This document shows, piece after piece, positions 2,075-54,759 of a stretch of 64,000 bases of DNA. Source of the DNA: an uncultured delta proteobacterium (lineage in GTDB: Bacteria; Desulfobacterota; BSN033; UBA1163); contig CAVOIK010000015.1 of the NCBI GenBank assembly GCA_963695895.1, forward strand, positions 38,400-102,399, given 5' to 3'. The notes under the pieces are model-generated. The model worked only from the letters and a program-made list of their open reading frames with translations, was not told the origin of the DNA and searched no databases. The translations under genes and the position numbers were made by a program. Numbering within the stretch: position 1 is the stretch's first letter; the number at the start of each line of letters is the position of its first letter.

Positions 2075-2078
2075 TCGG

Positions 2079-20500: not shown

Positions 20501-20507
20501 CAGTCCT

Positions 20508-21641: not shown

Positions 21642-21649
21642 ACGATGAC

Positions 21650-22828: not shown

Positions 22829-24094
22829 TCAAGGCTTGTCCTCTCTGCGTCTCTGCTCTGACAAAGACTGGTATAGTCCAGTTAGCTTTCTTCCTTCTAT
22901 TGCCCAGTCGTATCGATGAGTAGCTGCCTCGTGACCACGCCGGCCACACTCTCTCTGAAGGGCAGGGTCGATATGAAGCATCAGGATTTGCTTGGCGAGG
23001 TCCTTTGGGTCACCAGCCTGGAAAACGAGGCCACTCTTTGTCTCCTCAACGATGCGTTTCAAAGGGCGGCAGCTGCTCACCACCACCGGTTTGCTCATGA
23101 GCATGTATTGAAAGAGCTTATGAGGGACCGTGGCATCTGTGTGGGGATTCTGGTGGTGAGGAACCAAGCCGACGTGACTTGCCTCGATATAACTTGGGAC
23201 CTTATGAAATGGCTGCCACCCGATGATCTCCACATGATCCTGGACTCGTTGGGTCTCGGCAATCATCCGATATTCGTCACTCTCTTGGCGGCCGATACCG
23301 ACCAACACAAGTTTCACCTGTGAGGTCGACTCGCGCAGATAGGGCATCGCTTTGATAGCAGTATCCAGTCCGCGATGTTTCCCGCCGCCCCCAATGTAAG
23401 AGATGACGAAAGAATCCTTGTAGCGGGTCAGAATGTCTTGATCCAAGTCTAGACTCTTGAAATAGTCTGCGTCCTCCACGTTCATGACGACCGTAATTTT
23501 CTCCGGTTCAAGGCCATAGTCCTTTATCAATCGCTCCTTTGCTTCATCGACGACGACAACCACGTGAGTGGCAGAACGGACCACCCTTCGTTCGTAAGGG
23601 ACCCAACGCCTTGGATGGGGTGTGAGCCACGATCTGGAACTTGGGTCAGCCTCAATAGAGAGTCTGAGGGAGGCTGGATAATTCTCGTGGAGGTCCGCCA
23701 CCAGTGGAATGCCAAGCCTTTGGCTGACTTCCAGAGCTGTCCCCACGAGGGGGAGGTCGTGGACATGAAGGGCATCGAGCTCGAAGTCTCGGACATATCG
23801 CTCGATGTGGGATGCCCAATAGGGGTTTGTGAAGGTGAGGTAAAAGCGAAGAGAATTCAGGCATCGGCGAGCCGTTTGTAGCTGATCCGGTTCCCTGAGG
23901 ATGCGGCGAACCCTGAGACCTTCGATCTCCTCTTCGGGACGTTCATCTGCCTTTCCTGACCGGTAAGCGAGAAGATGGAGTTGATGGCCAGCGGAGAGAA
24001 GTGTCCGTACCTCCTTTTCAATGCGGATATCCGGTGGAAATTTGTTCCCGAGCACCATTCCGATCTTCATGATCAAGCCTTCCAATTTCTCCAA
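22829..24094 (-). CDS. glycosyltransferase family 4 (GT-B)
   Basis: 421 aa intact; ...GGGGKHRGLDTAIKAM...LVLVGIG; C-terminal GT4-like motifs. Confidence 0.6.
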   Translation of the reverse strand: MEKLEGLIMKIGMVLGNKFPPDIRIEKEVRTLLSAGHQLHLLAYRSGKADERPEEEIEGLRVRRILREPDQLQTARRCLNSLRFYLTFTNPYWASHIERYVRDFELDALHVHDLPLVGTALEVSQRLGIPLVADLHENYPASLRLSIEADPSSRSWLTPHPRRWVPYERRVVRSATHVVVVVDEAKERLIKDYGLEPEKITVVMNVEDADYFKSLDLDQDILTRYKDSFVISYIGGGGKHRGLDTAIKAMPYLRESTSQVKLVLVGIGRQESDEYRMIAETQRVQDHVEIIGWQPFHKVPSYIEASHVGLVPHHQNPHTDATVPHKLFQYMLMSKPVVVSSCRPLKRIVEETKSGLVFQAGDPKDLAKQILMLHIDPALQRECGRRGHEAATHRYDWAIEGRKLTGLYQSLSEQRRREDKP

Positions 24095-25539
24095 CGGCGG
24101 AGTTGGGAACGTAGCAGTCCTTTGAGCGCCTCGAGTTCCTCTTTTTCATAGAACCGAATGGCGTAAAGGAAGAACGGATAAGCAAAAAGCAGAAGGCATT
24201 TCAGTCCGATATTGAGCCATAAGAAAGGGGTCTCGATCAGCAGACTCACGCCGTAGGTGCCCCCCCATGTCAGGGCGAGCTTTGCCATTCGCCCGTATTC
24301 GTATCGAATATAGTAATAATGCAGATTGACCAGAGTCTGGACGATGACAAGGAAGAGGTAGGAAAGAATTGTCGCCCAGGCTGCCCCAATCATGCCGTAA
24401 GGAGGAATGAGGACGTAATTGAGGCCGAGATTGAGCAGGGCAGAACCCACGATGATGGGTGGAACGTAATAGTTTTTGTTCAAGATAGCGAGACCGGTGT
24501 TCGTCATATGACGCACCCCAGAAAAGATGTACGAGAGAGCGATTAAAGGGACGACAGCAGCGGCCGGATAGAATTTGGGAGTCGTCATGATCATGAGCAA
24601 CTCCTTGGCCAAGAGCGACAATACCATGGCGAGGAATCCAAAGGCCAGGAGATAGTAGGTCAGAATTCTGGCAAATTGGTGCTTGGCGTTCGGTTGTTTT
24701 GCAATCGCGAATCGGTGAGGGGGCCAGGCAAGCTGAAAGGCCTGCTCCACCAGGTTCATGATCATCCCAATATTGTAACCCAGGGAATAAAGACCCACCT
24801 GAGCGATTGTCGAGAAATGTTTTAAGAAGTAACGGTCTGCCATCGTGAGGAGAAGACTGGACAGGCCAACAGGGACCAGAGGAATTCCGAACCTGAGCAT
24901 TCTGCGGAGGATGAGTATTGAAAAGGTTCGCCGAAGGTCCTTTGCCATGAGGACGAAGTAGAGGGATGCGAATAGAGCATCTGTAATCAGCGCGGCAACG
25001 ATCAGACCTTCAACCCCCCTGCGAAGAACGGCGATATAATAGAGATTGAGAAGGATGCCAACCGTGAATCGTGCCACCGAGAGCAGGGAGTAGAGTGATG
25101 ATTGGGCTCGAGCGCGCAACCTTGCATTGAAGACAACATCCACTACCCCCACCCAATCCGCCAGAAACACCAGACGAAGGAGATAGACCCGATCCATCGT
25201 ACCAAAGACCAAATTGGAAAGCCCAGGAGAGATGAGGATCAGGGTCCCAAAAAAGAGTGCCGATTCTCCCAGAAGGAAATAGAGCGTGGTGCTCTCCACC
25301 GTTTGTTCGTCGGATCCTTCGTAGATGATCTCGCGAAAAAATGCAGAGCCCAAGCCGAGCTGGGCCACGATCGTTGCAAGACTGCTGGTAACGGTGAGGA
25401 GAGAAAGGATACCATAATCGGCAGGGGTCAGAAGACGAGTATAGACGGGTAACAAAAAAAAACCGATCAGCTTATTCAGCGTCCCTCCAAGCCCGTAGAC
25501 GATAGAGTGTTTCGTCAGATGTTTGATAGTTTCAAGCAT
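24073..25539 (-). CDS. Wzx-type polysaccharide/O-antigen flippase (MOP superfamily)
   Basis: 488 aa, ~12-14 hydrophobic segments, N-terminus ...HSIVYGLGGTLNKLIGFFLLPVYTRLLTPADYGI, typical of polysaccharide biosynthesis protein/Wzx. Confidence 0.65.
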   Translation of the reverse strand: MLETIKHLTKHSIVYGLGGTLNKLIGFFLLPVYTRLLTPADYGILSLLTVTSSLATIVAQLGLGSAFFREIIYEGSDEQTVESTTLYFLLGESALFFGTLILISPGLSNLVFGTMDRVYLLRLVFLADWVGVVDVVFNARLRARAQSSLYSLLSVARFTVGILLNLYYIAVLRRGVEGLIVAALITDALFASLYFVLMAKDLRRTFSILILRRMLRFGIPLVPVGLSSLLLTMADRYFLKHFSTIAQVGLYSLGYNIGMIMNLVEQAFQLAWPPHRFAIAKQPNAKHQFARILTYYLLAFGFLAMVLSLLAKELLMIMTTPKFYPAAAVVPLIALSYIFSGVRHMTNTGLAILNKNYYVPPIIVGSALLNLGLNYVLIPPYGMIGAAWATILSYLFLVIVQTLVNLHYYYIRYEYGRMAKLALTWGGTYGVSLLIETPFLWLNIGLKCLLLFAYPFFLYAIRFYEKEELEALKGLLRSQLRRWRNWKA

Positions 25540-25543: not shown

Positions 25544-27232
25544 TTATGCTAATCGAGATACCCCAAGGCTTTTCAATTTGTCCTTTATCTCTGACTCCTG
25601 TTCTGGAGTGTAAGTCATCTCTCCCTCTTGCGAGAGCATGGACGTGCCTCGGCGGTCCGATAACCTCAAAGGATCCAGTCCCTGGTCGAAAATATCCAGC
25701 ACCCTCCCATCCATCTCCGGGGTGAGGGGAATCCCGACGGTGTAGGTAGCGGTGGGAGCGACATCAACGATATGGGCTCTTCCAAGGGAATGATTTTGGC
25801 GGATCCCGGGTCCCCAGGCGATGAAGATCCCGTCTCTCTTGTGGGCACCCGTGGTCACCAAGGAATCGCGGAACACCTCACGGGTGAAATAGGACGGATG
25901 GGGGTTGCCCACATCCATAAAGGTGATGAGATCCGGGGCTAAGTGTGCGAAGGGTCCGTGATAAACCTCGCTGCCCTCACGGAGATCTGTAATCACGGGC
26001 TTTCCGTTGTGGGGGAATCGCAAACCGAGAAGCTGCTCTCTCAGATCGTTGAGAATCTTCTGGCTTTCTTTCCCCGGGGACACGATTCCTTTGGGCTCAC
26101 GTCCTTTTCTGTTGATTCGAACCCCGTAGTGATCGGTGAACGCCTGGGTACGATCCCAATCTACCCTCTCCTCGGCCACCCACTGTGCGATCTTCTGTTG
26201 GTAATGACGGGGATCACTTGCTTTAAGACTCTGTTGTTTTCTCTTGCGGTTGAGCCGGACCAGGCGGTTGTAGACGGCCTCTGTGCCAGGGATTTTTCTG
26301 ATCAGCGCTTTGACCGGGTTCTGCTTTTCCGAGAGAATGGGGGTCTTAAGGGTTAGAAACCCTCTTTCTTCGAGAAACTTGTTCAAGTAGAAGATCTTTT
26401 CGAGTGGGCCTGCCCCGTGATCGGAAACGACAAAGACCTGGGTGTCAGAGGGTCGTGCTTCTGTGATGATCCGTACTGCTTCGTCCAGTGCCTCATAGGT
26501 TCTCGGAATCACCCGATTCAAGGAGGAATCCTTTTGATGATGAAAGAGGTGGGATTTGTCCATCTCCGCCCAGAAGTGATGCTGGACCCGATCCAACTCC
26601 GTGAAGACGACCATAAAGAAGTCCCAGGTTTCCTTTTCCATCAGGAATTGAGCTGCCTGGGTGCGAGCTTGTATCGTGTCAAAGAGAGCCTCTGCATAGG
26701 CTCCTTTGCCGGCAGTGCTTTCGAGATCAAAATCGAATGGAGAAACTTCGGTCACATAATTTGGAACCACCTTTAGCAATTCCTGTTGGAATTCCGGCGG
26801 AAAGGTGAACCTCGCTCCCTGAGGAGTGAGCATTCCAGAGATGATCGTGCCGTTGATCGGATAGGGTGGGAATGAGATGGGTTCGTTGATCAGCACACTG
26901 GACTTCCCATACTCTGAAAGCAGACGGGGGAGAGTCTTTGCTCTCACGGTGGTGGAGTTGGGCAATTGGAACCGATAATTGTTTTGATCATCCCGCACCC
27001 CAAACCCAAACACCCCATGTTTCCCTGGATTGACTCCTGTCATGCAGGATGTCCACGCCGGCGCGCTGTGCGGAAAGGCAGTCGACTCCAGGACCGCTCT
27101 CGTTCCTTCACGGAGCAGCCGCTCGATCGTTGGCAACTTGCCTTCGCTGATCAAAGGTTCGATGACCTCAAAGGTCGCTCCATCCAGTCCAATCACCAGA
27201 ATTCGTCCCATCATCTTCCTCTTTGCCGTCAA
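25544..27232 (-). CDS. alkaline-phosphatase-superfamily protein (type I phosphodiesterase/nucleotide pyrophosphatase-like, PF01663-type), paralog 1; probable 1-nt indel at C-terminus (~25556)
   Basis: 562 aa ...ILVIGLDGATFEVIEP...VVSDHGAGPLEK...; no signal peptide. Terminal codons read ...KLKSLGVSRLA*; removing one G of ggggta gives ...KLKSLGYLD*, matching the LGYL tail of the paralogs. Confidence 0.55.
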   Translation of the reverse strand: MTAKRKMMGRILVIGLDGATFEVIEPLISEGKLPTIERLLREGTRAVLESTAFPHSAPAWTSCMTGVNPGKHGVFGFGVRDDQNNYRFQLPNSTTVRAKTLPRLLSEYGKSSVLINEPISFPPYPINGTIISGMLTPQGARFTFPPEFQQELLKVVPNYVTEVSPFDFDLESTAGKGAYAEALFDTIQARTQAAQFLMEKETWDFFMVVFTELDRVQHHFWAEMDKSHLFHHQKDSSLNRVIPRTYEALDEAVRIITEARPSDTQVFVVSDHGAGPLEKIFYLNKFLEERGFLTLKTPILSEKQNPVKALIRKIPGTEAVYNRLVRLNRKRKQQSLKASDPRHYQQKIAQWVAEERVDWDRTQAFTDHYGVRINRKGREPKGIVSPGKESQKILNDLREQLLGLRFPHNGKPVITDLREGSEVYHGPFAHLAPDLITFMDVGNPHPSYFTREVFRDSLVTTGAHKRDGIFIAWGPGIRQNHSLGRAHIVDVAPTATYTVGIPLTPEMDGRVLDIFDQGLDPLRLSDRRGTSMLSQEGEMTYTPEQESEIKDKLKSLGVSRLA

Positions 27233-28629
27233 AGGTATCCGAGCGCTTTGAGCTGCTGAATCGTAACGTCATTTTCTTCCTTTGATGATTTCGCCCCTCG
27301 TTCCTTTCCAAAGTCTCGAACGGTCTTGAAGAGCGTCTGGCGGAGGCTGTCTGCTATCGCGGGAAGGCTGTTGCCGATGTTATTTTGTTCTTTCGGGTCC
27401 TTTGCGAGATCATAGAGCTCTTCATGTCCATTCGAAGAAACGATATATTTATGCCGAAGGGTACGGATACTCTTGTATCCTTTCTTATAAACGGAATAGT
27501 CAAAATCGGGTGTCATTCTCCGGAAATAGTTGAAGACCCCCGGGGGGGCTTGGTATTCGGCGACCACGAAGTTCCTGCCTTCAGGGTTATTAGACTGACG
27601 ATCTGGAAACAAATAAATCCCTTGGCGGGAAGAATCAGATGGCGGCGGAAGGGCGGCTAACCCTAAAATCGACGGCATAACGTCGACCATCGATGCCAGG
27701 GTTGAAACCCGTTCTCCGTGAGGGATCGATCTGGGGTAATGCCAGATCATCGGGATCCGTATGAGAGAGTCGTAGAGACAAAATTGATGATACATGAGTC
27801 CGTGGTCCCCGAGGTTTTCGCCGTGATCAGCAAGCAAGAGGATCAAGGTATCCTCTAACAGATCCTCTGCCTGCAAGAGGACAAACAGCTTGCCAAGGAG
27901 CTCGTCCAAGTAGGTAATCTCACCATCGTAAAGACATTCCAATCCTGTGAATTCATCTTCTGTCACCTCCATCTGGCGGGCCATGAATCGATAGCCATCC
28001 CGGGTCGACAGGTCCTTAAGTTTCTTGGTCATCTGAAAGTTCGTTGGGCTGGCGGCATGACGGTTCAAAAACCTCGTTGGAGGATCATAAGGTGAATGTG
28101 CGGTATTCATGTTTGCAAAAATGAAGAAGGGCATCGAAGGGTCATGCTCTTTGATCCATCTCCGAATTTGTTCGTAAGTATATCGCGTTATTGGATCATC
28201 GAGACGCAGGAAGGAACGTATCTTAGCTTTCCATTTGGGAGTCAGCCGTCCCGTTTGATCCAATTTCCAGGCTTCAACATATTCATCAAACCCTCTATTG
28301 AACCCTTTCGTGACGCTGAGTTGGGGAATGGAACTGATGCCAAGGGTCCGATAACCTGCGTCTCGAAGAATTTCGACGAGGGTTTTATCGGACACGTCCA
28401 GAACCGAATCTCCTGTGTAGACACCGTGAAAGGAGGGATAAAGCCCCGTAAAGAGAGATGCGTGAGACGGGGGAGTCCAACATGAAGTGGAAAATGCATT
28501 CTCAAACAGAATTCCTCGCGTGCTCAGCCTGTCGATGTTTGGGGTAGTCTTCTTTCCGTAGCCGTAACATGACAGGTGATCGAAGCGAACGGCATCTAAC
28601 ACAACGAGTAGAATGTTGGGTCGTTTCAA
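27229..28629 (-). CDS. sulfatase-family (AP superfamily) protein with non-canonical active-site motif
   Basis: 466 aa MKRPNILLVVLDAVRFDHLSCYGY...STSCWTPPSHASLFTGLYP (C-x-P-x-R replaced by C-W-T-P-P-S-H; Arg to His), ...LLADHGENLGDHG; ends ...QQLKALGYL*. No signal peptide. Confidence 0.55.
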   Translation of the reverse strand: MKRPNILLVVLDAVRFDHLSCYGYGKKTTPNIDRLSTRGILFENAFSTSCWTPPSHASLFTGLYPSFHGVYTGDSVLDVSDKTLVEILRDAGYRTLGISSIPQLSVTKGFNRGFDEYVEAWKLDQTGRLTPKWKAKIRSFLRLDDPITRYTYEQIRRWIKEHDPSMPFFIFANMNTAHSPYDPPTRFLNRHAASPTNFQMTKKLKDLSTRDGYRFMARQMEVTEDEFTGLECLYDGEITYLDELLGKLFVLLQAEDLLEDTLILLLADHGENLGDHGLMYHQFCLYDSLIRIPMIWHYPRSIPHGERVSTLASMVDVMPSILGLAALPPPSDSSRQGIYLFPDRQSNNPEGRNFVVAEYQAPPGVFNYFRRMTPDFDYSVYKKGYKSIRTLRHKYIVSSNGHEELYDLAKDPKEQNNIGNSLPAIADSLRQTLFKTVRDFGKERGAKSSKEENDVTIQQLKALGYL

Positions 28630-28773
28630 GTCTCGCTCCTGCTCCAGAACTCGAAAGGGGATCTCATCCTCCGTTGAATCAATAAGGAAACCCTTTCTCT
28701 TTCAATTCAATTGAAACTATGGGTGACTGGGGTGATACGACAACCATTTTTATTCTTCACCCTCATCCAGAGC

Positions 28774-30495
28774 CTAAAGATAACCCAAATCCTCTAGTTT
28801 TTTCGCCATCTTAATCTCATCATCGGGTAATACGGTTTGATCGAGTGCCGCAGACTCTGAGACCTCGCTTTGCTGAACAGGGTGTTCAGCAAGAAAGTCC
28901 GGCCGAAACATCTCTCGAGTCACGGATCCGTCCACGTCTCGAGGCGCTGGAACGCCCAAGGTGTAAAGGATCGTTGGGGCGAGATCCGTGATGTCGGTCG
29001 TTTTCAGGTTCCCTCCTTGTCTAATGAAAGGTCCCTTCGCAATCAAGATGCCATCTCTTCGATGGTTTCCGGATCGAAAACGTTCCGGCTCCATGACGAT
29101 CCCCTCTCGGTCTAAGAAGGGGTAAAAATAGCAACCCACGGTTTCAGATAAGGGAATCAGATCGGGTGCTTCATCGAGGGACGATCCATGATAAATCTCT
29201 TCTTTTCGGAAGACACGGTCGAAGAGCTTCAGCCCGTGTGCATCGGTTAAAGCGAGAAGTTCCTTTGCGATAGCTTCACGGACTTCCTCATACTCCTGAC
29301 CAGGAGCCACCGTTCCCTGCGGTTCGCGGCCACGGAGGTTGATGCGGATCAGACCGGTTGTCCCGACGGAGTATGCCCGAGTCTTCCTCCAGTTCATGCC
29401 TCCCAACATGTGGTGGTAACCCCGGGGATTCAGAAAGTTGGACCATACTGGGAATCGGGATAGGATCCGCCTGAGGACGTGTAACATTCCATGCTGCAAA
29501 GTTAAGGGAAGGATGACCCCGAGGATCAAACTAAATCTTCTCATGACCTGACCGGTCATCCCATCAGAAGCAAGACCCAACCTTGACAGTAGGATCTCGG
29601 AGACGTCCCAGCCGATTCGGGTGAGAGGGGGATGGAGTTTCAGCATCCCCCTCTCTTGAAGCCACCGATTAATATGGAAGGTATAGCGATTTGGGCCAAA
29701 GCCATGGTCGGACATGACGAGGATTGTCGTAAGATCATGATCGACCTGGCTCAATAGTCTGCCGATAGCTTGGTCCACCTCTGAAAATACTTCGAGAAGT
29801 CCATCTCCATACTTGGCTGCGCTGTCTGAGTCATACTGAGGGTGACTGGGATCCACGAACCTCCAGAGGGCGTGCTGGATTACGTCCGTGGCATAGAAAT
29901 GGACCATAAAAAGGTCCCATCTCTCTTTGATCAGTACCTCAGCAGCTCTCAGACGCTCTCTCACCATTTTTTTTAAGTCGGCAATCAGGTCCCCGTATCT
30001 GCCTTCATATTTGGGAAGCCGAACGCTGATCCGATACTGATGTCTGTCCAGATGGAATTGTTCGAAGAGATACGGGGGATGGGTAAATCCCTGGCTGTCG
30101 ACATGAGGAGCGGGGATTCCTGCAATCGTTAGAATATTCGGGTCTTCTTCAGCAGGATAGGTCATTGGAACATTGATGATGATGGACTTTTTCCCATGGC
30201 GACTGAGCTGTTTCCACAATGAAATACCTTTCACCTGGAGGCGGGTCACCGTGCGGACAAGATAGGATTTGTTTTGGCACGAGAAAAAGTCATAGATTCC
30301 TGTATTGGAAGGGTCCCTGCCAGTCGCAAACGCTGACCAGGCGGCACTGGTGATCACAGGAAGGGTAGATCGCAGGATACCTGAAACACCCTCGCGCTGC
30401 ACCCTAGCGAGGTTCGGAAGAGCGCCCTGATCGATCCAAGGTTGAAGAAGTGTCCATGTGGCTCCATCGAGAGCCGAGACAAAAACCTTGTTCAT
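28774..30495 (-). CDS. alkaline-phosphatase-superfamily protein (PF01663-type), paralog 2
   Basis: 573 aa MNKVFVSALDGATWTLLQP...ILVMSDHGFGPNRY...; ends ...KKLEDLGYL*. Confidence 0.55.
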   Translation of the reverse strand: MNKVFVSALDGATWTLLQPWIDQGALPNLARVQREGVSGILRSTLPVITSAAWSAFATGRDPSNTGIYDFFSCQNKSYLVRTVTRLQVKGISLWKQLSRHGKKSIIINVPMTYPAEEDPNILTIAGIPAPHVDSQGFTHPPYLFEQFHLDRHQYRISVRLPKYEGRYGDLIADLKKMVRERLRAAEVLIKERWDLFMVHFYATDVIQHALWRFVDPSHPQYDSDSAAKYGDGLLEVFSEVDQAIGRLLSQVDHDLTTILVMSDHGFGPNRYTFHINRWLQERGMLKLHPPLTRIGWDVSEILLSRLGLASDGMTGQVMRRFSLILGVILPLTLQHGMLHVLRRILSRFPVWSNFLNPRGYHHMLGGMNWRKTRAYSVGTTGLIRINLRGREPQGTVAPGQEYEEVREAIAKELLALTDAHGLKLFDRVFRKEEIYHGSSLDEAPDLIPLSETVGCYFYPFLDREGIVMEPERFRSGNHRRDGILIAKGPFIRQGGNLKTTDITDLAPTILYTLGVPAPRDVDGSVTREMFRPDFLAEHPVQQSEVSESAALDQTVLPDDEIKMAKKLEDLGYL

Positions 30496-30504
30496 TCAAA
30501 TTCC

Positions 30505-31740
30505 TCATGAGGCGCCAGAAGACAGGGGATCGGCCACCGCCCGGTAAACCTCCTCGAACTCTTTGACTTTAATGGCCCAGTCGAATTGAAGCGCATAGCT
30601 CCTAATCTTCTCCCTATCCCAAGACTGTTTCAGCGCAGTCTCAATAGCTGTGGCTAAGGATTCGGGATCCCCTTGAGATGTCAGATACCCATATTCGCGA
30701 GAGGGAAGAAGCTCGCTCAAGACACTTGGACTTCCAAGAACTGGACACCCGCAAAGCATAGCTTCGAAAAAGACAAGGCCGAAGCTTTCCATGAAGCTTG
30801 GCAGGACAAAAAGGTCGGCGGCATGGTAGTAATATGCCAATTCCGACTGGACCTTTGGACCTTCAAGGGAAACACAGGAGGAAAGCCCCTTTTCTTCAAT
30901 CAGCTTCGCGAGTTCAGCTCTCTGAGGTCCATCTCCAACGAGCATCAGATTAAAGTTGATCCCTCTGGCTTTGAGCCTGATGGCACTCTCCATCAGAATC
31001 TTCGGTCCTTTGCGCGGGATCAAGCCACCGACAAAAAGGATCAGAAGCTGACCAGGTTCTCTCCCGATGTGCTGCCGCGCCTTATCGATTGGGATAGAAG
31101 GATATTTCGAGACGTCGATAGGATTGTGGATAACCCAGGTTTTCAGCTTCTCCAGCCTGTTGGGGAAGAGTTCCTCGTACCGTTTCTTGACGAAGTGGCT
31201 CACGAAAATCAGGTTTGGGGCCAGCTGCAGATTTCGGTCAATGAACCGATGCCGGAGGTCCTTCAGGGGAGCTTGGGCGAATTCCACAGAGTGGGTAGAG
31301 TGAATCGTCGTGACGATTGGGGACCGGCCGTTTCCTAGGAAGTGCGCATAGGGGAACCGATTCTCGAGATGGTGAACATGAATGACGTCGGGCTGAAACA
31401 AGTGGATGACACGGTCATAGTCCAGGGATTGCACGATGATTCCAGGCAAATGCTGAAGGGAACCGCACCCACGCTTGACACGGCCAACATTTCTCAGAAA
31501 TTGGGGGTCAAGGACACGGCAAGTCCGAAGAGCTTGGATAGGTCGACGCCGGCCATAGATCTCAATCCCCTCTTGGGTTTTCGAACCCTTGTCCTCGGTG
31601 ACGGTGTTATCTGCGAGCACGGCAATCTGGTGATTCTGTCTAGCCAGATGGGTTACAAGACCCCAGAGATGGGTGGCGACGCCGCCGCGCGTCCGGCCGC
31701 CGACGTCAGGAGGAATAGGACCGACCTGTAGAATTCTCAT
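30505..31740 (-). CDS. glycosyltransferase family 4 (GT-B)
   Basis: Likely start MRILQVGPIPPDVGGRTRGGVATHL (4-nt overlap with the upstream gene stop); C-terminus ...EGPKVQSELAYYYHAADLFVLPSFMESFGLVFFEAMLCGCPVLGS. ORF extends further 5' to 31932 without a better start. Confidence 0.6.
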   Translation of the reverse strand: MRILQVGPIPPDVGGRTRGGVATHLWGLVTHLARQNHQIAVLADNTVTEDKGSKTQEGIEIYGRRRPIQALRTCRVLDPQFLRNVGRVKRGCGSLQHLPGIIVQSLDYDRVIHLFQPDVIHVHHLENRFPYAHFLGNGRSPIVTTIHSTHSVEFAQAPLKDLRHRFIDRNLQLAPNLIFVSHFVKKRYEELFPNRLEKLKTWVIHNPIDVSKYPSIPIDKARQHIGREPGQLLILFVGGLIPRKGPKILMESAIRLKARGINFNLMLVGDGPQRAELAKLIEEKGLSSCVSLEGPKVQSELAYYYHAADLFVLPSFMESFGLVFFEAMLCGCPVLGSPSVLSELLPSREYGYLTSQGDPESLATAIETALKQSWDREKIRSYALQFDWAIKVKEFEEVYRAVADPLSSGAS

Positions 31741-32972
31741 GATATGGATCTGCTTTCTTCCCCTTTCAGGATCAAAGCGTAACATTCTGCGAGGGCTCGG
31801 AGCATCCACGCCTGCCCCCAACGGATGTAAGGAATTTTCAATTTCCAGTCGAATCCCGTTTTGGCTTTTCGAACCATGTAGATAAACCAACCCTCGGGAT
31901 GTTGCATGGTCTTCAAGATCCAAGGAACGCATCTCCCCAGATAGCTTAAGGTCTCTGGAAAATCAGGCGCAAGAGTGCTGTGACAAAGAATGGCCTCGGC
32001 ACAGCTATGGATGTTGATGGGATAAAGCGACTGGGGCCTCATTTTAGGATACCCCTCGGATGTGAAAAGATTTTCACAATAGAAGCGATAGCACTTTCTA
32101 AGCGCCTCATAGATTCCTTTTTCTCCGGTCGATTTCCATATCGAGTGAAGAGAGCGAATTTCGAAACCGGCATGGTAGTGGTCTATCTTGCACTCCTTCT
32201 CCTGATCTTTTCCCCAATAGCAAAAAGAACCATCCTCATTTTGCTGCTTCAGCGTGTAGGTTAGCGCTTTCTCGGCCATCTCAAGATATTCTTTTCGTCC
32301 TGAAACCTTCCCGACTTTGATCAAAAAATCGGCCACAAAAAGGTTACCGTTATGGATATGGAAGTGGTCGAGAGGTGTCTTGCTGAAGCAAAGGGAGTCC
32401 TCCTCCAGGACATCAATGTTGAGGTTACGGAGGAAGAACTCGCAAATACTCTGACAGGGGTGAAGAAAGCGATGATCTTGGGTGCTTTGGTAAAACCGCC
32501 AAAAGGCGTCGCCGATGATAGCCGTGATGACTGACGACGGTGTGTCCTTCGGGACAAGGATTTTCGATTGCCAGCTAAAAGGATGGCCCCAACAGAGTCC
32601 ATCATAACCCTGGCAGGGGTTTTCTTCCAACCACTGAAGAGCCCTCTGGGCTTTCGTAAGGTACGTTGTGTCTCTTGTCGTTTCGTAGAGAACTTGGTAA
32701 CCTGCAGCAAATAGCCCCATCGACTTAGGGTTCACCGTTTTAGGAATACGTAAGACTTTTCTTGGGATGGAAGGAAAGAAAGATTCGGTGATCAAGAGAA
32801 TCTGACGGAGAATCCTTTGGGAGAAAGCAGATCCAGATGTTGAAGAAAGGAAGGGATGCTGTTTCAGATCATAAGGGTCGTACCCAGCCCAACCATAGCG
32901 TGTCATCCAATGATCGAGACGAGCGATACTTTCCTTCACCAGGGCTGTTTGTTCTAAAATGCTCATCCTCAT
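31737..32972 (-). CDS. hypothetical alpha/alpha6-barrel-like protein (possible glycan epimerase/lyase/hydrolase)
   Basis: 411 aa; repeated aromatic/Gly-rich helix-pair signatures (GYDPYD, NGNLFVADFL, QNEDGSFCYW, HYHAGFEIRSL, IRWGQAWMLRALAE). Family not identified with certainty. Confidence 0.35.
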   Translation of the reverse strand: MRMSILEQTALVKESIARLDHWMTRYGWAGYDPYDLKQHPFLSSTSGSAFSQRILRQILLITESFFPSIPRKVLRIPKTVNPKSMGLFAAGYQVLYETTRDTTYLTKAQRALQWLEENPCQGYDGLCWGHPFSWQSKILVPKDTPSSVITAIIGDAFWRFYQSTQDHRFLHPCQSICEFFLRNLNIDVLEEDSLCFSKTPLDHFHIHNGNLFVADFLIKVGKVSGRKEYLEMAEKALTYTLKQQNEDGSFCYWGKDQEKECKIDHYHAGFEIRSLHSIWKSTGEKGIYEALRKCYRFYCENLFTSEGYPKMRPQSLYPINIHSCAEAILCHSTLAPDFPETLSYLGRCVPWILKTMQHPEGWFIYMVRKAKTGFDWKLKIPYIRWGQAWMLRALAECYALILKGEESRSIS

Positions 32973-32980
32973 TCGCCGGT

Positions 32981-34637
32981 TTAAAGGTACCCAAGGTCTT
33001 CGAGAGATCTGCGCACCGATTCATCCTGAATTTCCTTGGCCCCCCGTTCTGTGCGCAGAGTAGGTGCGTTCACGAAACGGATCTCCCTTCGAGCGAAATC
33101 ACTCTCGGGTTCGAAGAGATCTTTCAGAACTCTTCCGTCCATATCGTCGGGAATTGGGATTTCAAGAATGTGGAGAAGGGTCGGGACGATGTCAATGATC
33201 TCCGCTTGTCCTAATCGATGGTCTTTGCGAATCTCAGGCCCTCTGACAATGAGAATCCCCTCAGGACGATGGGTTCCGCTGTAGTCCTCGCGGAGGGAGT
33301 CCTTTTGAAAAACAGCCCCCTGAACAAAAGAGGAACGAGAGATGCAGCGCCAGTTATTGATCACGTAAACAAGATCGGGCGCCTGAGATAGATATTTTTC
33401 GCGATACAGTTCTTCTCGCTTGAATATTTGAATCTGCAAATTTGGAGTGGTTGCACTGAGCACTCTGAGTTCATGGATAATTTGTTCTCTGAGCTCTTCG
33501 TATAACCGTGGGGAAACCGTGCCCTGATCTTGGCGGCCCTCCGAATTGATGTAAATTGTTCCGTAGACCGATGTATGAGGAGGACTGTAAGCTCTTGTTC
33601 TGCTCCAGTCAATCTGCCCCAGCATCGACTCATATGAAACCTTCCTCTCTTTCGGCTTGCTTAGGAACCGGGGCGCCCGTTGTCTCAAGTTTTCTGGCAG
33701 AGGAAGGTGTTGGGCGAGGTTGGAGCTGAAATTGTGGATTCTCTGGGAAAACGACTTGGATTTCAGTCCATCCCCTTTGAGCTTGAGAAAACCTTTTTGG
33801 AGAAGCCACTGATTGATGTAAAAGGTTTCGTCTTGAACTCCAAACCCGTGATCGGAAAGAATAAAAACGGTTGTCTTGTCATCCGTTGTCTCCAAGATGT
33901 TTCCCACCGCTTCGTCGAGATGTTTCCAGAAGTCATGGACCAACTCTCGATACTTCGTGTGATGGACGTCGTCTCCATGTTCTTCAGGATCCATGTATCT
34001 CCACAGTCGATGCTGGACGCGATCCGTGCACGTGAAGGCGAAAATGAACAATTCGGGGTCGTATTTGTTTTTCAGAAAGTGATAAGCTTTCATCCTCTGA
34101 TCAAGTAGACTGTGTACATCGTTAAGAAAGTCTTCGTGCCTTCGGTAGTTCCTATATCGGATGTCGGTACGGTGCCCTCCCGTCACACGATCGAGCTCTG
34201 CCTTTAACTCTAAGGGGTAAGTGTAATCTTGAGCATGGTCGGGAATTGGAAAACCTGCCACTAAGAACCCATTCATTTCCACCGGAGGATACGTGGTGGG
34301 CAAGTCATAAACACCGATGCAGCAATCGCCAAGGGAGCCGACGATATCCCAGATCGTTGGGTCGGGGAGTTGTCCAAGCTGAATCAAAGAGGTCTGATAT
34401 CTCTTGGGGTCGTGCCTTAGAAAGTCAAAGACTCCTGTCGTGCCAGGATTTTTCCCCGTCTTGAAGGCGTGCCAAGACGGACCGCTTACAGGGGGCATGG
34501 TGGATAGAAGCTCTCCGCTCGAACCCTCCGCCATAAGTTTGGCTAGGTTTGGTAAAGTGCCCCTCCTCTATCAAAGGGCGGATCACTTTGAAAGTGACAC
34601 CATCCAATGCAATCAGCAAAACCCTATTTTTCAACAT
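32981..34637 (-). pseudogene. alkaline-phosphatase-superfamily protein (PF01663-type), paralog 3; apparent +1 frameshift ~nt 34560 (C4 run)
   Basis: N-terminal piece MLKNRVLLIALDGVTFKVIRPLIEEG (ORF 34425..34637). Frame of ORF 32981..34534 continues TLPNLAKLMAEGSSGELLSTMPPVSGPSWHAF...; ends ...RSLEDLGYL*. Confidence 0.55.
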
Positions 34638-34711
34638 GTTTGTGCCTGAACCTTGTCTCTGTCACCCAAGAACTCCAGAGCCCAATGCGACCTAGCCTCT
34701 AAAACCGTGTC

Positions 34712-35896
34712 TCAGGACTTCTCATGAGGCCTGGAAGGGGTCTTAGTCAGAATTTTGATGATCCTCTCCGCTGTCTTCCCGTCCCAAAGGGCAGGGATCT
34801 TGGCCTTCTTCGATTTCCCTGCTAGGATCTTGGACGCTTCCCTAATGATCTTTTGGGTATCATTCCAGACCAGGACGTTCGTTCCTTGGGTAATCGTGAT
34901 GGGACGTTCGGTGGTGTTACGAAGGGTCAGGCAGGGAATGTTGAGGACCATCGCCTCCTCTTGAATCCCTCCAGAATCCGTAAAGACCAGTCTTGAATGA
35001 ACCATCAGCTTGACAAAATCGAGATAACCCAAAGGATCCATTCCGTAGAAGCCGGGGGAACTCAGGTCGGCTCGCCGACGGACATCTCGGAAGAGAATTT
35101 TGTCTTGAAGTCCAAACGCAGACAACTGTTTCCTGGTCCGGGGGTGAACGGGAAACAAAATGGGTATTCTCTTCGAAATGACTTCGAGACCCTTCAGGAT
35201 CTTCGTCAGAGAGCCTTGATCATCGGCATTGCTGGGACGATGGAGCGTGAGGAGAGCGTAGGGAGAGATGCGGGAGGGGTCTTTCTGAAGGCCCAATCGG
35301 ACCAGGATGTTTGATTTTTCTGCTTCCTTCATATGAAAGAAGAGACTGTCAATCATGATGTCTCCCACTTGATAGATCTTCTTAGCAGAGACCCCTTCTT
35401 TCAAGAGGTTCTTGCCGCCGTCCGGCGAGGGAGTGAAGAGATAGGTGGAGAGTGAATCGGTCACCAGACGATTGATCTCTTCGGGCATGGTTCGATCGAA
35501 AGATCGCAGGCCAGCTTCCACATGAGCTACCGGGATGGTCAATTTCACTGCGGCTAGCGTACAGGCGAGGGTTGAATTCACGTCACCCACCACAATCACT
35601 GCCTCCGGTTTTTCTCTTAAGAGTACCTTCTCAAACTCGACCATGACCTTCCCGGTCTGCTCGGCATGACTTCCTGAACCGACCCCCAGGTGAATGTGGG
35701 GGTCCGGAATCTTCAAATCTTCAAAAAAAGAATCGGACATATTGAAGTCGTAATGTTGTCCGGTGTGGACCAACACGTATTTCACGCGTTCCTTCTTTGT
35801 TTCCACAGAACGGTTGTGCTTTTCTATGGCCCGAACCAAAGGGGCCACCTTCATGAAGTTGGGTCGTGCAGCGGCAACCAGAATGAATTTCTTCAT
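34712..35896 (-). CDS. wecB: UDP-N-acetylglucosamine 2-epimerase (non-hydrolysing)
   Basis: 394 aa MKKFILVAAARPNFMKVAPLVRAI...HTGQHYDFNMSDSFFEDLKIPDPHIHLGVGSGSHAEQT... Confidence 0.75.
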   Translation of the reverse strand: MKKFILVAAARPNFMKVAPLVRAIEKHNRSVETKKERVKYVLVHTGQHYDFNMSDSFFEDLKIPDPHIHLGVGSGSHAEQTGKVMVEFEKVLLREKPEAVIVVGDVNSTLACTLAAVKLTIPVAHVEAGLRSFDRTMPEEINRLVTDSLSTYLFTPSPDGGKNLLKEGVSAKKIYQVGDIMIDSLFFHMKEAEKSNILVRLGLQKDPSRISPYALLTLHRPSNADDQGSLTKILKGLEVISKRIPILFPVHPRTRKQLSAFGLQDKILFRDVRRRADLSSPGFYGMDPLGYLDFVKLMVHSRLVFTDSGGIQEEAMVLNIPCLTLRNTTERPITITQGTNVLVWNDTQKIIREASKILAGKSKKAKIPALWDGKTAERIIKILTKTPSRPHEKS

Positions 35897-36166
35897 TGTC
35901 TTGATCCTGTAGTTAACGTATTTCTGAGAACGACTCTCACCGAAGTCCTACTTGCAGGCTCCGTGCACGTGAAGAACCAATTCTTATCTATTCCAGTTCA
36001 ACGGTAAAATCAGATGATCTTATAAAGTCATTCTGCCGGAGGTTCGGGTGAATGGAAACTTTATGATTGCTATCATTCAATCCCTAATTCCGATCAATGG
36101 CAGAATCAGAACAGTCAAGTGATTAGGCCATGTAAAAAACTGGTATGGACATTGGGCGAAGGCAGA

Positions 36167-37465
36167 CTATGACGAGAAGTAGTCCAGGATGACTTTGGCG
36201 GGAAACTCTATATTCATAGTGCCTTCCAATTTGATATGAGAGGGAAGGATGAGGACGGCATTGTTCCACGTGTGCATTCCCGTGAAAATATCGGACGTAA
36301 ACACTTCTTCCTTTCTCATATTCCCTTTCAGGTCGTACCCCACGTTCGGAACACAGACAAGGTCCGGAGCCTGTTCAAGGTAGGGGCCTTGATAGATCTT
36401 CTCTTTTTCGAAAACGGAATTGATCACCGGTGTGCCATCTTCGGTTTTCAGTTCAGAAAGCACTGCTTTTACCTGTTCCCTGAACTTGCTTGCCTGGCCC
36501 GCGGTCACATGCCCCTTGGGAAATTTCTCGTCGTGGATATAGATCCTCCCAGGATCCATGGCAAAGGCCAAGGTGCCGCGGTCGATCTTCTCATAGTATT
36601 CCTTCGATGGATCCAACTTAAGCAGTCCCGTCTTTTGAAGATAGGCATTCAGATTGACCTCTCGCTCCAACAGAGAGAACCCATGGTCAGAAAGAATCAT
36701 GAAAAGGAAATCCTCTCCCCATTTCTTCTTCGCTGCGTAGTAGAGGTCTGACATCATTTCATCAATCGCCCGGTAAGGCTTCTCAAAGGTGTCCGACTCC
36801 TTTTCGTTGAAAAAGAAGTGATGAAGCCGATCTGTCTCGGTGATACAGAAAACGCAAAGATCCCATGCCTCTCGATCAAAGAGGTCAAGGAAGACTTTCC
36901 GACGAACAGAAAGGCTCTGAAGGATGTCTGCATAGAGAGCTTTCTTGTCTCTCCGAGCCTTTTCTGCCTCGACGTCGATGATATAGTTCATGGATCTCAA
37001 GAGTGGGACGTAGGAGGAGGGATAGACGGCCTTCTCGAAATCGACCGCGACAAAGCCAGAGACCAGTAGCCCTTCAATGGGAAAGGCAGGATAGGTGCTT
37101 GGCACATTGATCACAAGAGTCTTGTTAAGTTTTCCCTGTTTGGAGAGAGTCTGCCAGAAGGGGGGCGACCTCATATCTCTCGAATTAGTAAAGTGAAGCT
37201 TATAAGAAGCGGGTTGGAGGTGAGTAAATCCAAAGATGCCGTGCTGACCCGGATTGACCCCGGTCATGAACGAGGTCCATGAGACACTCGAGATTTCAGG
37301 GAGGGATGCGTTCATGGAATGGAGCGCGAACCCTTGGGTCAAAATCTGATTCAGTTTGGGCATGGTTCCATTCTTTATAAAGGTGTCGAGCAGCGGGTGA
37401 GGAACACCATCAATTCCGATGACGAGGGCTCTTTTCCTTTTTTTCGAAAACCATTTCATGGACAT
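36167..37465 (-). CDS. alkaline-phosphatase-superfamily protein (PF01663-type), paralog 4; first gene of the minus-strand operon
   Basis: 432 aa ...ALVIGIDGVPHPLLDTF...FMILSDHGFS...; lacks the LGYL tail. Confidence 0.55.
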   Translation of the reverse strand: MSMKWFSKKRKRALVIGIDGVPHPLLDTFIKNGTMPKLNQILTQGFALHSMNASLPEISSVSWTSFMTGVNPGQHGIFGFTHLQPASYKLHFTNSRDMRSPPFWQTLSKQGKLNKTLVINVPSTYPAFPIEGLLVSGFVAVDFEKAVYPSSYVPLLRSMNYIIDVEAEKARRDKKALYADILQSLSVRRKVFLDLFDREAWDLCVFCITETDRLHHFFFNEKESDTFEKPYRAIDEMMSDLYYAAKKKWGEDFLFMILSDHGFSLLEREVNLNAYLQKTGLLKLDPSKEYYEKIDRGTLAFAMDPGRIYIHDEKFPKGHVTAGQASKFREQVKAVLSELKTEDGTPVINSVFEKEKIYQGPYLEQAPDLVCVPNVGYDLKGNMRKEEVFTSDIFTGMHTWNNAVLILPSHIKLEGTMNIEFPAKVILDYFSS

Positions 37466-37820: not shown

Positions 37821-38543
37821 ATGGTTCCAAGCGAGAAAGTTCTGGTGATCATCCCAGCCTATAATGAAGAGAAATCGATCGGGAAGGTCATCGAAGACGT
37901 CAAGACCCATTTCCCGCAAGCAGATATTCTGGTGGCTAATGATGGATCCACGGATCACACGTCTGAACGGGCTAGGAACTGTTCAGTGACCGTCCTGGAT
38001 CTTCCCTACAATCTAGGCATCGGGGGGGCGGTGCAGGCCGGTTATAAGTATGCTTTTGAGAAAGAATATGATGTCGCCATTCAGGTGGATGGAGACGGAC
38101 AACATGCACCCAAAGAGATCCGTAAGCTCTTTGAAAATTTGATCAAGAACGGAAATGACATGACCATCGGGTCTCGTTTTCTGGGTGGCTCAGAGTACCG
38201 GGCCTCCCTGATGCGCCGGGTGGGAATTACGATTCTCTCCATGGTCGTCTCTGTCCTCATCAGACAAAAAGTCACGGATCCAACGTCGGGATTCCGGGCA
38301 GCAAGTCGAAGGGCGATTCAACTCTTCGCCCTGGATTACCCCCAGGACTATCCTGAGCCAGAGGTTCTGGTTCTGTTGAGCCGTAACGGTCTGAAGATCG
38401 AAGAAGTTCCGGTAAAAATTGAGCAACGATCCTTCGGAGAATCTTCGATCACGAACATCAGGGCCATCTACTACATGATCAAAGTGTTACTGGCCATTTT
38501 CGTGGATTGTTTTAAGAAAAAGACCCCTTTGACCGGCAAGTGA
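37821..38543 (+). CDS. GT2 polyprenyl-phosphate glycosyltransferase (GtrB/ArnC/DPM1-like)
   Basis: 240 aa VLVIIPAYNEEKSIGKVI...VANDGSTDHTSE...VDGDGQH...PTSGFRA, classic Dpm1/GtrB motifs. Confidence 0.65.
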   Translation: MVPSEKVLVIIPAYNEEKSIGKVIEDVKTHFPQADILVANDGSTDHTSERARNCSVTVLDLPYNLGIGGAVQAGYKYAFEKEYDVAIQVDGDGQHAPKEIRKLFENLIKNGNDMTIGSRFLGGSEYRASLMRRVGITILSMVVSVLIRQKVTDPTSGFRAASRRAIQLFALDYPQDYPEPEVLVLLSRNGLKIEEVPVKIEQRSFGESSITNIRAIYYMIKVLLAIFVDCFKKKTPLTGK

Positions 38544-38642
38544 CCCGTCCCGCCTGAGCGGGAAGGGCGGGGTCACGGGGCACAATATGAAAGGAAGCTA
38601 CCTTACCGGGAAGCCCGGCCCTTTAGGGCGGGGAGATTCACA
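38540..38642. repeat. BIME/REP-like mosaic repeat unit (type 1) with terminator-like hairpin and SD-bearing 3' end
   Basis: Hairpin gtgacccgtcccgcc-tgagcgggaag-ggcggggtcac; gggcacaatatgaaagga; ccgggaagcccggccctttagggcggggagattcac, ending 16 nt before the ATG at 38657. Confidence 0.55.
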
Positions 38643-38656
38643 TAGGAGAACCAAAG

Positions 38657-39040
38657 ATGTTGATCAAAATCCAAATTATCATCGGAGCCCTGAGCATTGC
38701 TCTCCTCCTCTTTACGTGTGAGTTGATTCGGCAGAAGAGACTGAGGGAGGAGTATTCTCTCCTTTGGCTATTTACCGCCGGAGCAACTTTCATTTTCAGC
38801 CTCTCTCCAAACTTCTTCCTTGCCAAATTTTTCAGCCGTATCACAGGCCTCTACTATCTTTCGGCGGTCGTGCTGATCCTCTTTGCCTTTCTGCTTTTGA
38901 TCGTCTTCCATTTCTCGGTGGTGATCTCAAAGCTTACTGATCGAAACAAGGAGCTGACGCAGCGGTACTCCCTCTTGGAACTGGAATTTAAGGAATTCAA
39001 GAAACAGCTTTCTTCAGAGCCGAGGAGAAATCCATCATGA
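38657..39040 (+). CDS. DUF2304-family small membrane protein (GT2/GtrA-associated)
   Basis: 127 aa, 3-4 hydrophobic helices, cytoplasmic coiled C-terminus; immediately downstream of the GtrB-like GT2. Confidence 0.45.
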   Translation: MLIKIQIIIGALSIALLLFTCELIRQKRLREEYSLLWLFTAGATFIFSLSPNFFLAKFFSRITGLYYLSAVVLILFAFLLLIVFHFSVVISKLTDRNKELTQRYSLLELEFKEFKKQLSSEPRRNPS

Positions 39041-41966: not shown

Positions 41967-42325
41967 GAAGCTGTGAAAAGATCAAAAACGTTCAAAAAAT
42001 AGAGCTTGTCCTGCACGGACGGTTCTCTTGGAGAACTTTGGATCGGAACCCCTTGCCGTTCAATTCAATCGGCTGAATTGCAATAACTTCGTACCCTTAC
42101 TGCCACGAAATGTTGCCCGGAATATGATGCTCCGCATTCCAAAGGTGCGGAAAGAGAGCCATCCTGGAAGGGGCAAGCGCAAATGAATAGCAATTTTGTC
42201 GCGCCCTCTGAATGTTTGCGGCAAGAGAGATTATGTTGTTGATTAATTTGCCAATTGTGTTATATGTTTTTTTCGATTATATTTTCATGGGTTATGCGGG
42301 TTCAGGTGGACAGGAGTTAGAGCCG

Positions 42326-47895: not shown

Positions 47896-47924
47896 GTGCA
47901 GTAACTTCAGAGGTGAGAGATTTC

Positions 47925-54629: not shown

Positions 54630-54759
54630 CGTTTAACCCCTTTCTGTGAAGTTTATTGATTTTTCTAACATTTTCATTTAGCGTGTGTCAAGTTTTGCTT
54701 CCTTTTCCCGTCACATGGATAAGGAGTAGAGGCGATAGATCAAGAGGAGAACGTCCAGT

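Follow-up and report, generated by a model that had tools for sequence, protein, structure and literature searches.

The window analysed here is a stretch of 64,000 nucleotides from contig CAVOIK010000015.1 of an uncultured delta proteobacterium, and it contains an approximately 30-kb Wzx-type envelope-polysaccharide locus on a chromosome fragment of a diderm host of the Thermodesulfobacteriota. Within this locus, five genes on the minus strand encode proteins of the alkaline phosphatase (AP) superfamily, which we named A1 to A5 in minus-strand order of rising window coordinates. These five open reading frames (ORFs) had been singled out in an original prediction made from the sequence, and Pfam profile scans placed them at the predicted positions and in the predicted superfamily, four of them matching PF01663 and one PF00884. 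A1 (25544..27232; PF01663 E 3.5e-37), A3 (28774..30495; 573 aa; E 2.1e-40), A4 (32981..34637; 551 aa after correction; E 3.1e-23 on the truncated ORF 32981-34534) and the short, divergent A5 (36167..37465; 432 aa; E 4.6e-46 over the whole profile) resemble nucleotide pyrophosphatases/phosphodiesterases (NPPs) and score 83-158 bits against a PF01663 gathering cutoff of 23, A1 being of the 'COG3379 / AlkP family' type. A2 (27229..28629; PF00884 E 2.3e-49, 168.8 bits against a cutoff of 25) has the fold of S1 sulfatases. None of A1 to A5 reached an NCBIfam cutoff.

BLASTP comparison among the five proteins indicates that A1, A3 and A4 are true full-length paralogs with 29-34% identity (29-31% for A1 against A3 and A4). 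A5 is only 26-28% identical to these three, carries neither the helical insert nor the tail discussed below, and ends ...VILDYFSS*, while the similarity of A2 to the other four proteins is confined to its first ~70 residues, that is, to the level of the superfamily. Thus, the view of the cluster as five paralogs holds for A1, A3 and A4, and has to be relaxed for the divergent A5 and for A2. To define the tail-bearing 'COG3379 / AlkP family' clade for working purposes, we required similarity over the full length, a helical insert of basic character and an ending of the form ...L(R/K/E)xLGY(L/I/V)x; all three features are present in A3, A4 and corrected A1, and A5 shows the core similarity only.

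Conservation at the presumptive active site of the NPP-like enzymes is strong. In an alignment of 80 A3 homologs, D10, D204, D263, H264 and H478 did not vary at all and H208 and the T49 column varied hardly at all, and this set corresponds to the metal-ligand and nucleophile positions of NPPs; a profile alignment to PhnA also matches the nucleophile column of the A3 family. The catalytic residues of A1 are D17, S56, D214, H218, D271, H272 and H464, and A5 keeps D19, S59, D212, H216, D260 and H261, its last His being recognised only by eye, as a GMH motif. Conservation of the metal site, which had been suggested as a check on the cluster, was therefore found both across the homologs and among the paralogs, and in all five proteins, A2 included, the residues that bind the metals are kept, together with a Ser or Thr as nucleophile. 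The N-terminal (V/I)IGLDG segment, which had been taken for the nucleophile region, carries the first metal-binding Asp instead; the nucleophiles (S56 in A1, T49 in A3, S51 in A4 and S59 in A5) lie ~40 residues past this strand.

AlphaFold2 (AF2) models were made of A3 and A2, and the NPP-like fold was thus modelled for A3 only (pLDDT 92.6, pTM 0.91). Its best structural matches in the PDB by Foldseek are the Xac NPP, ENPP1/3 and PhnA (probability 1.0 for 7n1s, 2gsn, ENPP1/3 and 3t02; E down to 3e-17; TM-score 0.68-0.70 on the target), whereas a sequence search of solved structures with A3 returned nothing better than E 0.003. The window proteins have the fold of Xanthomonas NPP, ENPP1-7 and PhnA, use the same six positions as metal ligands and carry a Thr/Ser nucleophile in the corresponding motif. 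They differ in that they are only 11-15% identical to these enzymes, are predicted to be cytoplasmic rather than secreted, are encoded in glycan loci, often as arrays, and add a basic helical insert of ~60 residues as well as an extension of ~100 residues at the C-terminus, the last part of which is an LGY tail. The insert, at A3 residues ~285-370, is basic and partly hydrophobic; over the 80 homologs, its median length is 63.5 aa and its net charge +8 (range +2 to +16). The insert of A3 also contains the segment with the highest 19-residue hydropathy in the five proteins (1.73, A3 residues 323-341). The absence of signal peptides had been predicted, and neither signal peptides nor transmembrane segments were detected in A1 to A5, whose catalytic strand with the metal-binding Asp begins at residues 5-17. 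For this reason, we regard all five as putative cytoplasmic metalloenzymes of the AP superfamily.

Four of the five proteins (A2, A3, A4 and, after correction, A1) end in L(K/E)xLGYL. The tail of A2 (27232..27273, minus strand), ...NDVTIQQLKALGYL, ends ...QQLKALGYL* and is represented by a logo of 111 homologs; that of A3 (28777..28818, minus strand), ...EIKMAKKLEDLGYL, ends ...KKLEDLGYL*; and that of A4 (32984..33025, minus strand), ...DESVRRSLEDLGYL, ends ...RSLEDLGYL* and aligns to the tail columns of the family. As assembled, A1 ends ...LKSLGVSRLA*, and its DNA reads CTTGGGGTATCTCGATTAG (25549-25567, minus strand). When one base is dropped from CTTGGGGTAT (25561-25566), the protein ends LKSLGYLD* with a stop at 25549-25551, and its length changes from 562 to 560 aa. 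Its orthologs in two relatives end LKSLGYLD* (L001) and LKGLGYLG* (L002); here and below, L numbers denote genome loci and P numbers homologous proteins, both being identifiers of this analysis. The one extra base in A1 had been anticipated, and only its location, formerly given as ~25556, has to be moved to 25561-25566. The genuine start codon of A4 is the ATG at 34637, and one extra base at ~34557 shifts the frame; the 98%-identical contig L089 does not have this base, and its A4 ortholog is intact at 551 aa. The predicted sharing of the LGYL tail by four of the five proteins consequently survives the correction of both genes.

The tail is by no means restricted to the window. It was present in 118 of the 120 best homologs of A3, in 111 of the 120 best homologs of A2 and in 128 of 144 representatives of an exhaustive search. 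When the pattern L..[LMIV]GY.{0,4}$ was applied to ORF calls from the same loci, it matched 112 of 122 AP-superfamily ORFs and 1 of 946 others, which is far beyond chance. It is strictly C-terminal, with one or two residues after GY and no more, and its key positions (L567, G571 and Y572 in A3; L460, G464 and Y465 in A2) equal the catalytic residues in their invariance. When logos are anchored on GY, the two families look alike: with G as position 0, acidic residues occupy -13 to -9, a hydrophobic residue -8, R/K/Q -5, L -4 (100%), R/K -3 and L -1 (97-98%), followed by G, Y, L/I/V/F and then 0-1 residue. The hydrophobic spacing (i, i+4, i+7) is compatible with a single helix face, and in the AF2 models a helix (557-569 in A3, 454-462 in A2) is followed by four non-helical residues, so the tail is modelled as an amphipathic helix with G-Y-hydrophobic at the chain end. 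In P0361, a 1,104-aa tandem fusion of two NPP-like domains, the motif occurs at the extreme C-terminus only. There are also other long members, including sulfatase-type proteins with extra domains: P0200, P0202, P0227 and P0240 (650-720 aa) are, like P0361, tailed at the extreme C-terminus, and P0390 (862 aa) is tail-less.

Taken at the sequence level, the tail is an ancient hallmark of two families that are related only at superfamily level, and not a feature of this locus. It had been proposed that the tail docks the paralogs onto a locus-specific partner, and this does not agree with its occurrence throughout the families, single-copy loci included. Most loci encode a single tailed protein, which disfavours a hetero-complex of paralogs as the main purpose of the tail; moreover, no neighbour gene family was common to most loci among 143 flanking ORFs from 38 unrelated loci, and hence no common partner encoded in the loci is evident. 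Self-association, an intramolecular latch or binding of a ubiquitous partner are possible roles.

The second of the two families is represented by A2. Its AF2 model (pLDDT 90.8) matches S1 sulfatases and phosphonate monoester hydrolases in Foldseek with a TM-score of ~0.7 (9ihk, 5g2v, 6g5z, 4upi and 4uph), at 18-23% identity to 4upi, 4uph, 6g5z and 5g2v. The N-terminal LDxxRxDxLSCYG strand is as in 4upi, and the active-site His and Lys are conserved, H178 and K394 being kept across the A2 clade. In contrast to S1 sulfatases, the clade has T-P-P-S-H for C/S-x-P-x-R, and A2 is predicted to be cytoplasmic, carries the LGY tail and lies in a glycan-locus context. The formylglycine site of A2 is a Thr (Thr52, in WTPPSH), with Thr at the Cys/Ser position and His at the Arg position in a phmmer alignment with 4upi, and most of the 120 best homologs read W-T-(P/L)-P-S-H where sulfatases have C/S-x-P-x-R. 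A2 thus lacks the C/S-x-P-x-R signature, Thr and His having replaced its Cys/Ser and Arg, and with neither Cys nor Ser available for conversion to formylglycine it is not a formylglycine sulfatase. Matches of A2 to the NCBIfam models of EptA, CptA and MCR reached 19-41 bits, against cutoffs of 404-1250. The family has 3,070 matches, which are named 'arylsulfatase A-like enzyme' or 'sulfatase' and include Bathyarchaeota. A2-type genes occur in glycan loci of Bathyarchaeota and others, together with GT2, GT4, DUF2206, DegT and WbqC genes and, in L085, also with a PF01663 gene; one of the three A2-type loci examined is not a glycan locus.

The A3-type family is larger still. We obtained 1,922 word-index matches to A3, and an exhaustive search gave 18,689 clusters at 50% identity with E<=1e-3 and 4,195 with E<=1e-30. 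Their labels are 'alkaline phosphatase family protein' or 'predicted AlkP superfamily phosphohydrolase/phosphomutase', the latter being the label of COG3379. Both sequence families are thus already in databases, and we found no description of the tail. In a scan of the GTDB species representatives, built on 12 closer sequences, the window genes had no close relatives (best identity 38%). The 355 distant relatives that it returned belong mostly to Anaerolineae and other Chloroflexota, and the remainder to Thermodesulfobacteriota, Planctomycetota, Poribacteria, Eisenbacteria, Nitrospinota, Methanobacteriota and Geothermarchaeales. The multiplicity of AP genes had been considered unusual for a glycan locus, but it is not peculiar to this one: two to five copies occur in about 18 of 80 unrelated genome loci, often next to Wzx, MurJ or Wzy. 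Examples are L007 of the Thermodesulfobacteriota, with the order AP, AP, AP, Wzx, AP, GT4 and a fifth copy; L018 of the Chloroflexota, in which four AP genes lie between MurJ and a Wzy/O-antigen-ligase-like gene; and L042 of the Planctomycetota, with three copies. The 143 flanking ORFs mentioned above include GT2 (17), methyltransferases (9), GT1/GT4 (8), LPG_synthase_TM (7), Wzx-type proteins (7), APS kinase (6), PMT_2 (6), MurJ (4), SurE (4) and ATP sulfurylase (3).

In the window itself, glycan-synthesis-related genes extend from the start to about 40 kb, and the minus-strand order is an AsnB-type amidotransferase, three GT4-like paralogs, a GT4 glycosyltransferase, Wzx, A1, A2, A3, a second GT4, an alpha/alpha-barrel-like protein, A4, WecB and A5. 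The Wzx-dependent glycan setting that had been predicted was borne out by the Pfam matches of Wzx, the two GT4s and WecB, and weakly for the barrel protein. The Wzx-type flippase (24073..25539, minus strand; PF01943 and PF13440) lies directly downstream of A1, a position kept in L001, L002 and L004, and the GT4 downstream of it (22829..24094, minus strand; PF00534 and PF13579) is syntenic in relatives. Besides the Wzx-type PF01943, Pfam scans showed neither a Wzy family nor one of initiating phosphoglycosyltransferases (PGTs) in the window ORFs that were scanned, some of which have no Pfam match and many of which are split by indels. The second GT4 (30505..31932, minus strand; PF00534 and PF13439), between A3 and the barrel-like protein, overlaps the gene of the latter (31737..32972, minus strand) by 196 nt as called; in reality it probably begins with the ATG at 31740 (MRILQVGP...), because this codon directly follows the stop of the barrel gene and the resulting protein matches orthologs of 409 aa. 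The barrel-like protein has only weak Pfam matches (C5-epimerase_C, GH88 and GH76) and no NCBIfam match. A WecB-type UDP-GlcNAc 2-epimerase (34712..35896, minus strand; PF02350 E 6e-106) separates A4 from A5.

Upstream of A5, a divergent plus-strand unit (37821..39996) encodes a GT2 similar to polyprenyl-phosphate sugar synthases, with PpgS/AglJ-like NCBIfam matches below cutoff, as well as a DUF2304 protein (PF10066) and an NAD-dependent epimerase/dehydratase (PF01370), and this unit is kept in L088, L089, L097, L100 and L103. The block A5-WecB-GT4-A3-A2-A1-Wzx-GT4 is retained in relatives at 65-98% identity, and A4 and the barrel gene are paired in four relatives (L089, L001, L092 and L095) and both missing from the 65%-identity relatives L002-L004. 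Elsewhere in the window, the plus strand carries radical SAM, GT9, GT2, epimerase, DegT, GT4-like and methyltransferase genes at 1-8 kb, several of them truncated or split, and a split WaaP-like kinase, a GFO oxidoreductase, a hexapeptide acyltransferase, PMT_2, GT2, a methyltransferase and DUF354 at 9-17.5 kb. The radical-SAM / 4Fe-4S protein (974-2074) is near GT9 and GT2 and 25 kb from A2. The three tandem GT4-like paralogs at 19366-22788 are atypical; the middle copy (20508-21641, 377 aa) is intact and has weak Pfam GT4 matches, and the flanking copies (19366-20500 and 21650-22788) are each in two pieces. Between the glycan-locus genes and hslVU lies a tyrosine recombinase of the phage-integrase family (42212-43291), perhaps at the boundary of a mobile or variable region, and housekeeping genes such as that for LeuRS (47913-50522) lie beyond. 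The LeuRS is 99% identical to metagenome proteins and about 80% identical to proteins of metagenome-assembled genomes named Thermodesulfobacteriota, Desulfobacterales, Syntrophaceae or Deltaproteobacteria, which places the host in the Thermodesulfobacteriota (Syntrophales-like); a Chloroflexota host, to which the Anaerolineae names of AP homologs had pointed, was rejected on this ground. Neither tRNAs nor other Rfam families were detected across the window.

As for the function, the reading that we favour, tentatively, is that phosphoryl (phosphodiester) groups are transferred or edited on intermediates of the glycan. A1 to A5 would be active phosphodiesterases or phosphotransferases working through a covalent Ser/Thr intermediate. 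Their substrates would be repeat-unit intermediates, lipid-linked or nucleotide-activated, that are still on the cytoplasmic side of the membrane and have yet to be flipped by Wzx. Each paralog may serve a different position, acceptor or substituent. The strongly basic helical insert, as judged from its charge alone, might hold the enzymes on the anionic membrane surface, and the tail could provide self-association or docking to a partner that is ubiquitous and not specific to the locus. The functional analogy comes from LtaS, EptA/MCR-1, CptA, OpgB and BcsG, in which an AP domain with a Thr nucleophile adds phospho-substituents to envelope glycans or lipids. However, LtaS, EptA, OpgB and BcsG have N-terminal multi-span anchors and act on the outer face, and A1 to A5 are predicted to do neither. 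Several observations weigh against phosphoryl transfer on glycan intermediates. Genes for donor synthesis of the CDP-glycerol or CDP-choline type were absent from the 25 commonest neighbour families listed, and several relatives adjoin sulfate-activation genes instead of phospho-donor genes. The hydrophobicity of the insert is transmembrane-like in only 4 of the 80 homologs, and the pLDDT of the tail is only 61-85 (74-85 in A3; block means of 75 falling to 61 over residues 441-466 in A2). Furthermore, no characterised member of either family was found in the literature, above an NCBIfam cutoff or, for A3, among close PDB relatives. Phospho-substituent or intermediate-processing chemistry, as first suggested for the cluster, nevertheless remains a reasonable inference.

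The link to sulfate activation, on which the original prediction was silent, deserves separate discussion. The only tail-pattern match among the 946 non-AP ORFs is the CysD of L003 (15-656), which ends ...MQKLRALGYM and matches 1zun_A with E 1.6e-48. In this 65%-identity relative, CysD, a small ORF, CysN and an A5 ortholog (73% identical) occupy positions 1-3839 and are followed by WecB, GT4, A3, A2 and A1. In L098 (1910-4599), an A5-like gene (46% identical) lies directly upstream of CysD-CysN (CysD at 3275-4078), so that A5 orthologs adjoin cysD-cysN in both loci. Upstream of the A5-like gene (L098:181-1885) are an ABC permease and a 282-aa ATPase, which from size and C-terminus we take to be PstA/PstB-like, a hint of a phosphate-starvation context. 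Their assignment as a sulfate importer was dropped because the 282-aa ATPase and its C-terminus look PstB-like, and whether the context is one of phosphate or sulfate is ambiguous. L022 (14012-17208) and L030 (15201-18412) have Sat, a tail-less family member and an adenosine 5'-phosphosulfate (APS) kinase whose start overlaps the preceding stop. We had considered these tail-less copies to be A5-type, and rejected this since BLASTP ranks A4 and A1 ahead of A5 in similarity to them. Immediately upstream of the AP gene, L022 also has a gene for an ASST-like arylsulfotransferase.

In 13 further loci, all from Chloroflexota, a Sat/CysC fusion has a tailed copy 0.1-4.6 kb upstream of it and often a second CysC after it, and in 7 of the 13 the adjacency is direct: L045, L060, L068, L072, L076 and L078 (about 10-14 kb; gaps 0.1-0.35 kb) and L026 (2.7 kb). 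Housekeeping genes such as PrmC and Sua5 are also found in these neighbourhoods, and no sulfate-activation genes were found at the locus in the window or in its closest relatives (L001, L088 and L089). Judging from these gene orders, pure chance is an unlikely explanation for the link, since it is seen repeatedly in Thermodesulfobacteriota-like as well as Chloroflexota contigs, and the ATP sulfurylases involved are of two non-homologous kinds. The adjacency would fit either sulfuryl transfer or hydrolysis of adenosine 3',5'-bisphosphate (PAP), pyrophosphate (PPi) or APS. Haloferax Agl7 (HVO_2046) might be a member of one of the two families as well, and was not used as evidence. Agl7 'contributes to sulfation of DolP-hexose' (PMC3892788).

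On this basis, one alternative is that the proteins are a new class of cytoplasmic glycan sulfotransferases, or sulfate-ester editors, in which a sulfuryl group from APS or 3'-phosphoadenosine 5'-phosphosulfate (PAPS) would pass through a sulfo-Ser/Thr to lipid-linked sugars. We consider this unlikely. It draws on the three arrangements of sulfate genes in two phyla with two unrelated ATP sulfurylases, on the S1-sulfatase fold of A2 with H178 and K394 kept, and on the fact that Pfam scans found no canonical sulfotransferase domain among the window ORFs. A Ser in place of formylglycine traps the sulfo-enzyme intermediate, which is not hydrolysed, and such trapping would suit a sulfotransferase. 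However, neither the window nor its closest relatives have sulfate-activation genes at the locus, and phosphoryl transfer is the classical task of an NPP site that combines two metals with a Thr/Ser nucleophile. Fifteen of the supporting loci come from one clade of Chloroflexota with housekeeping neighbours (PrmC and Sua5), L022 already has a sulfotransferase candidate in its ASST-like protein, and the sulfate-gene adjacency could equally mean hydrolysis of PAP, PPi or APS.

The last point leads to a second alternative, to which we give a similarly low probability, namely that the proteins belong to soluble metabolism as nucleotide pyrophosphatases, phosphodiesterases or phosphomutases. They would hydrolyse nucleoside diphosphate (NDP)-sugars, NDP or nucleoside monophosphate by-products, PPi or PAP, or convert sugar phosphates into one another, and thereby drive or tune the pathway. 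The closest structures are indeed nucleotide pyrophosphatases/phosphodiesterases, including NPP3 with UDP-GlcNAc, and PhnA; the family is named 'phosphohydrolase/phosphomutase' in the sources; the adjacency to ATP sulfurylase is compatible with removal of PPi or PAP; and the presumably PstA/PstB-like transporter of L098 suggests phosphate metabolism. Four to five diverged paralogs per locus, arrays beside flippases or polymerases in several phyla, a basic insert and an invariant tail would, however, be excessive for a housekeeping hydrolase, and identities of only 26-34% among the paralogs suggest distinct specificities.

A more far-reaching form of the sulfate hypothesis, which we rate as rather improbable, is that the NPP-like and the Thr-type sulfatase-like tailed proteins together form an unrecognised class of cytoplasmic glycan sulfotransferases or anionic-ester transferases that use APS/PAPS, and that the CysD-like tail docks a conserved partner. 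The likeness to CysD concerns a helix-like stretch followed by G-Y-hydrophobic at the C-terminus, as in ...MQKLRALGYM of the relatives and ...MEEKKRQGY(F) of Pseudomonas syringae (1zun_A). However, the fold of CysD, a PAPS-reductase-like ATP pyrophosphatase, is unrelated to that of the AP proteins, and the resemblance extends over ~10-24 residues and may be coincidental.

Export of the proteins, with the tail as a secretion or sorting signal and an extracytoplasmic action like that of LtaS, EptA, OpgB or BcsG, is very unlikely. Most characterised AP-superfamily modifiers of glycans and lipids, and NPPs, do work outside the cytoplasm, and the motif is strictly C-terminal. Yet the proteins have no signal peptide and no transmembrane anchor, their first beta-strand begins within 5-17 residues of the N-terminus, and the tail, acidic and helical, is unlike known C-terminal sorting signals. 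It is also common to archaea and unrelated bacterial phyla, and we know of no export system with a C-terminal signal that these archaea and bacterial phyla have in common.

There is hardly anything to recommend the view that A1 and A4 are decaying pseudogenes and the paralog cluster redundant remnant DNA: the 1-nt insertions in the window cost A1 its last residues and A4 its first 34, whereas orthologs at 65-98% identity are intact, every catalytic residue is kept in both proteins, and HslU (44024-44464 and 44457-45335), MurJ (54656-55300 and 55252-56436), DegT (5279-6118), the epimerase (4298-4981) and the WaaP-like kinase (9085-10687) are split or truncated in the same way, as are two of the three GT4-like paralogs. 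With orthologs intact and the essential HslU and MurJ split likewise, the insertions in A1 and A4 are most simply, and probably, assembly errors. Because single-base shifts also hit essential genes, it is probably the assembly that is prone to indels and not the genome that is decaying.

Phosphoryl transfer or editing on glycan intermediates is thus the interpretation that we carry forward, and what is new in it would be a group of AP-superfamily group-transfer enzymes that appear to be cytoplasmic, bear a tail and are tied to flippase loci. What is unusual here belongs to the families and not to the window. The invariant motif common to two distantly related families offers an experimental handle, and the link to sulfate activation offers an alternative chemistry that can be tested. 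For the A2 clade, the label 'sulfatase' is misleading, and with Thr in place of formylglycine its members should be left out when metagenomic surveys count sulfatases. Once worked out, the reaction of these enzymes would bring to light a step in the modification of glycans that is widespread and so far undescribed, in lineages that are for the most part uncultured.

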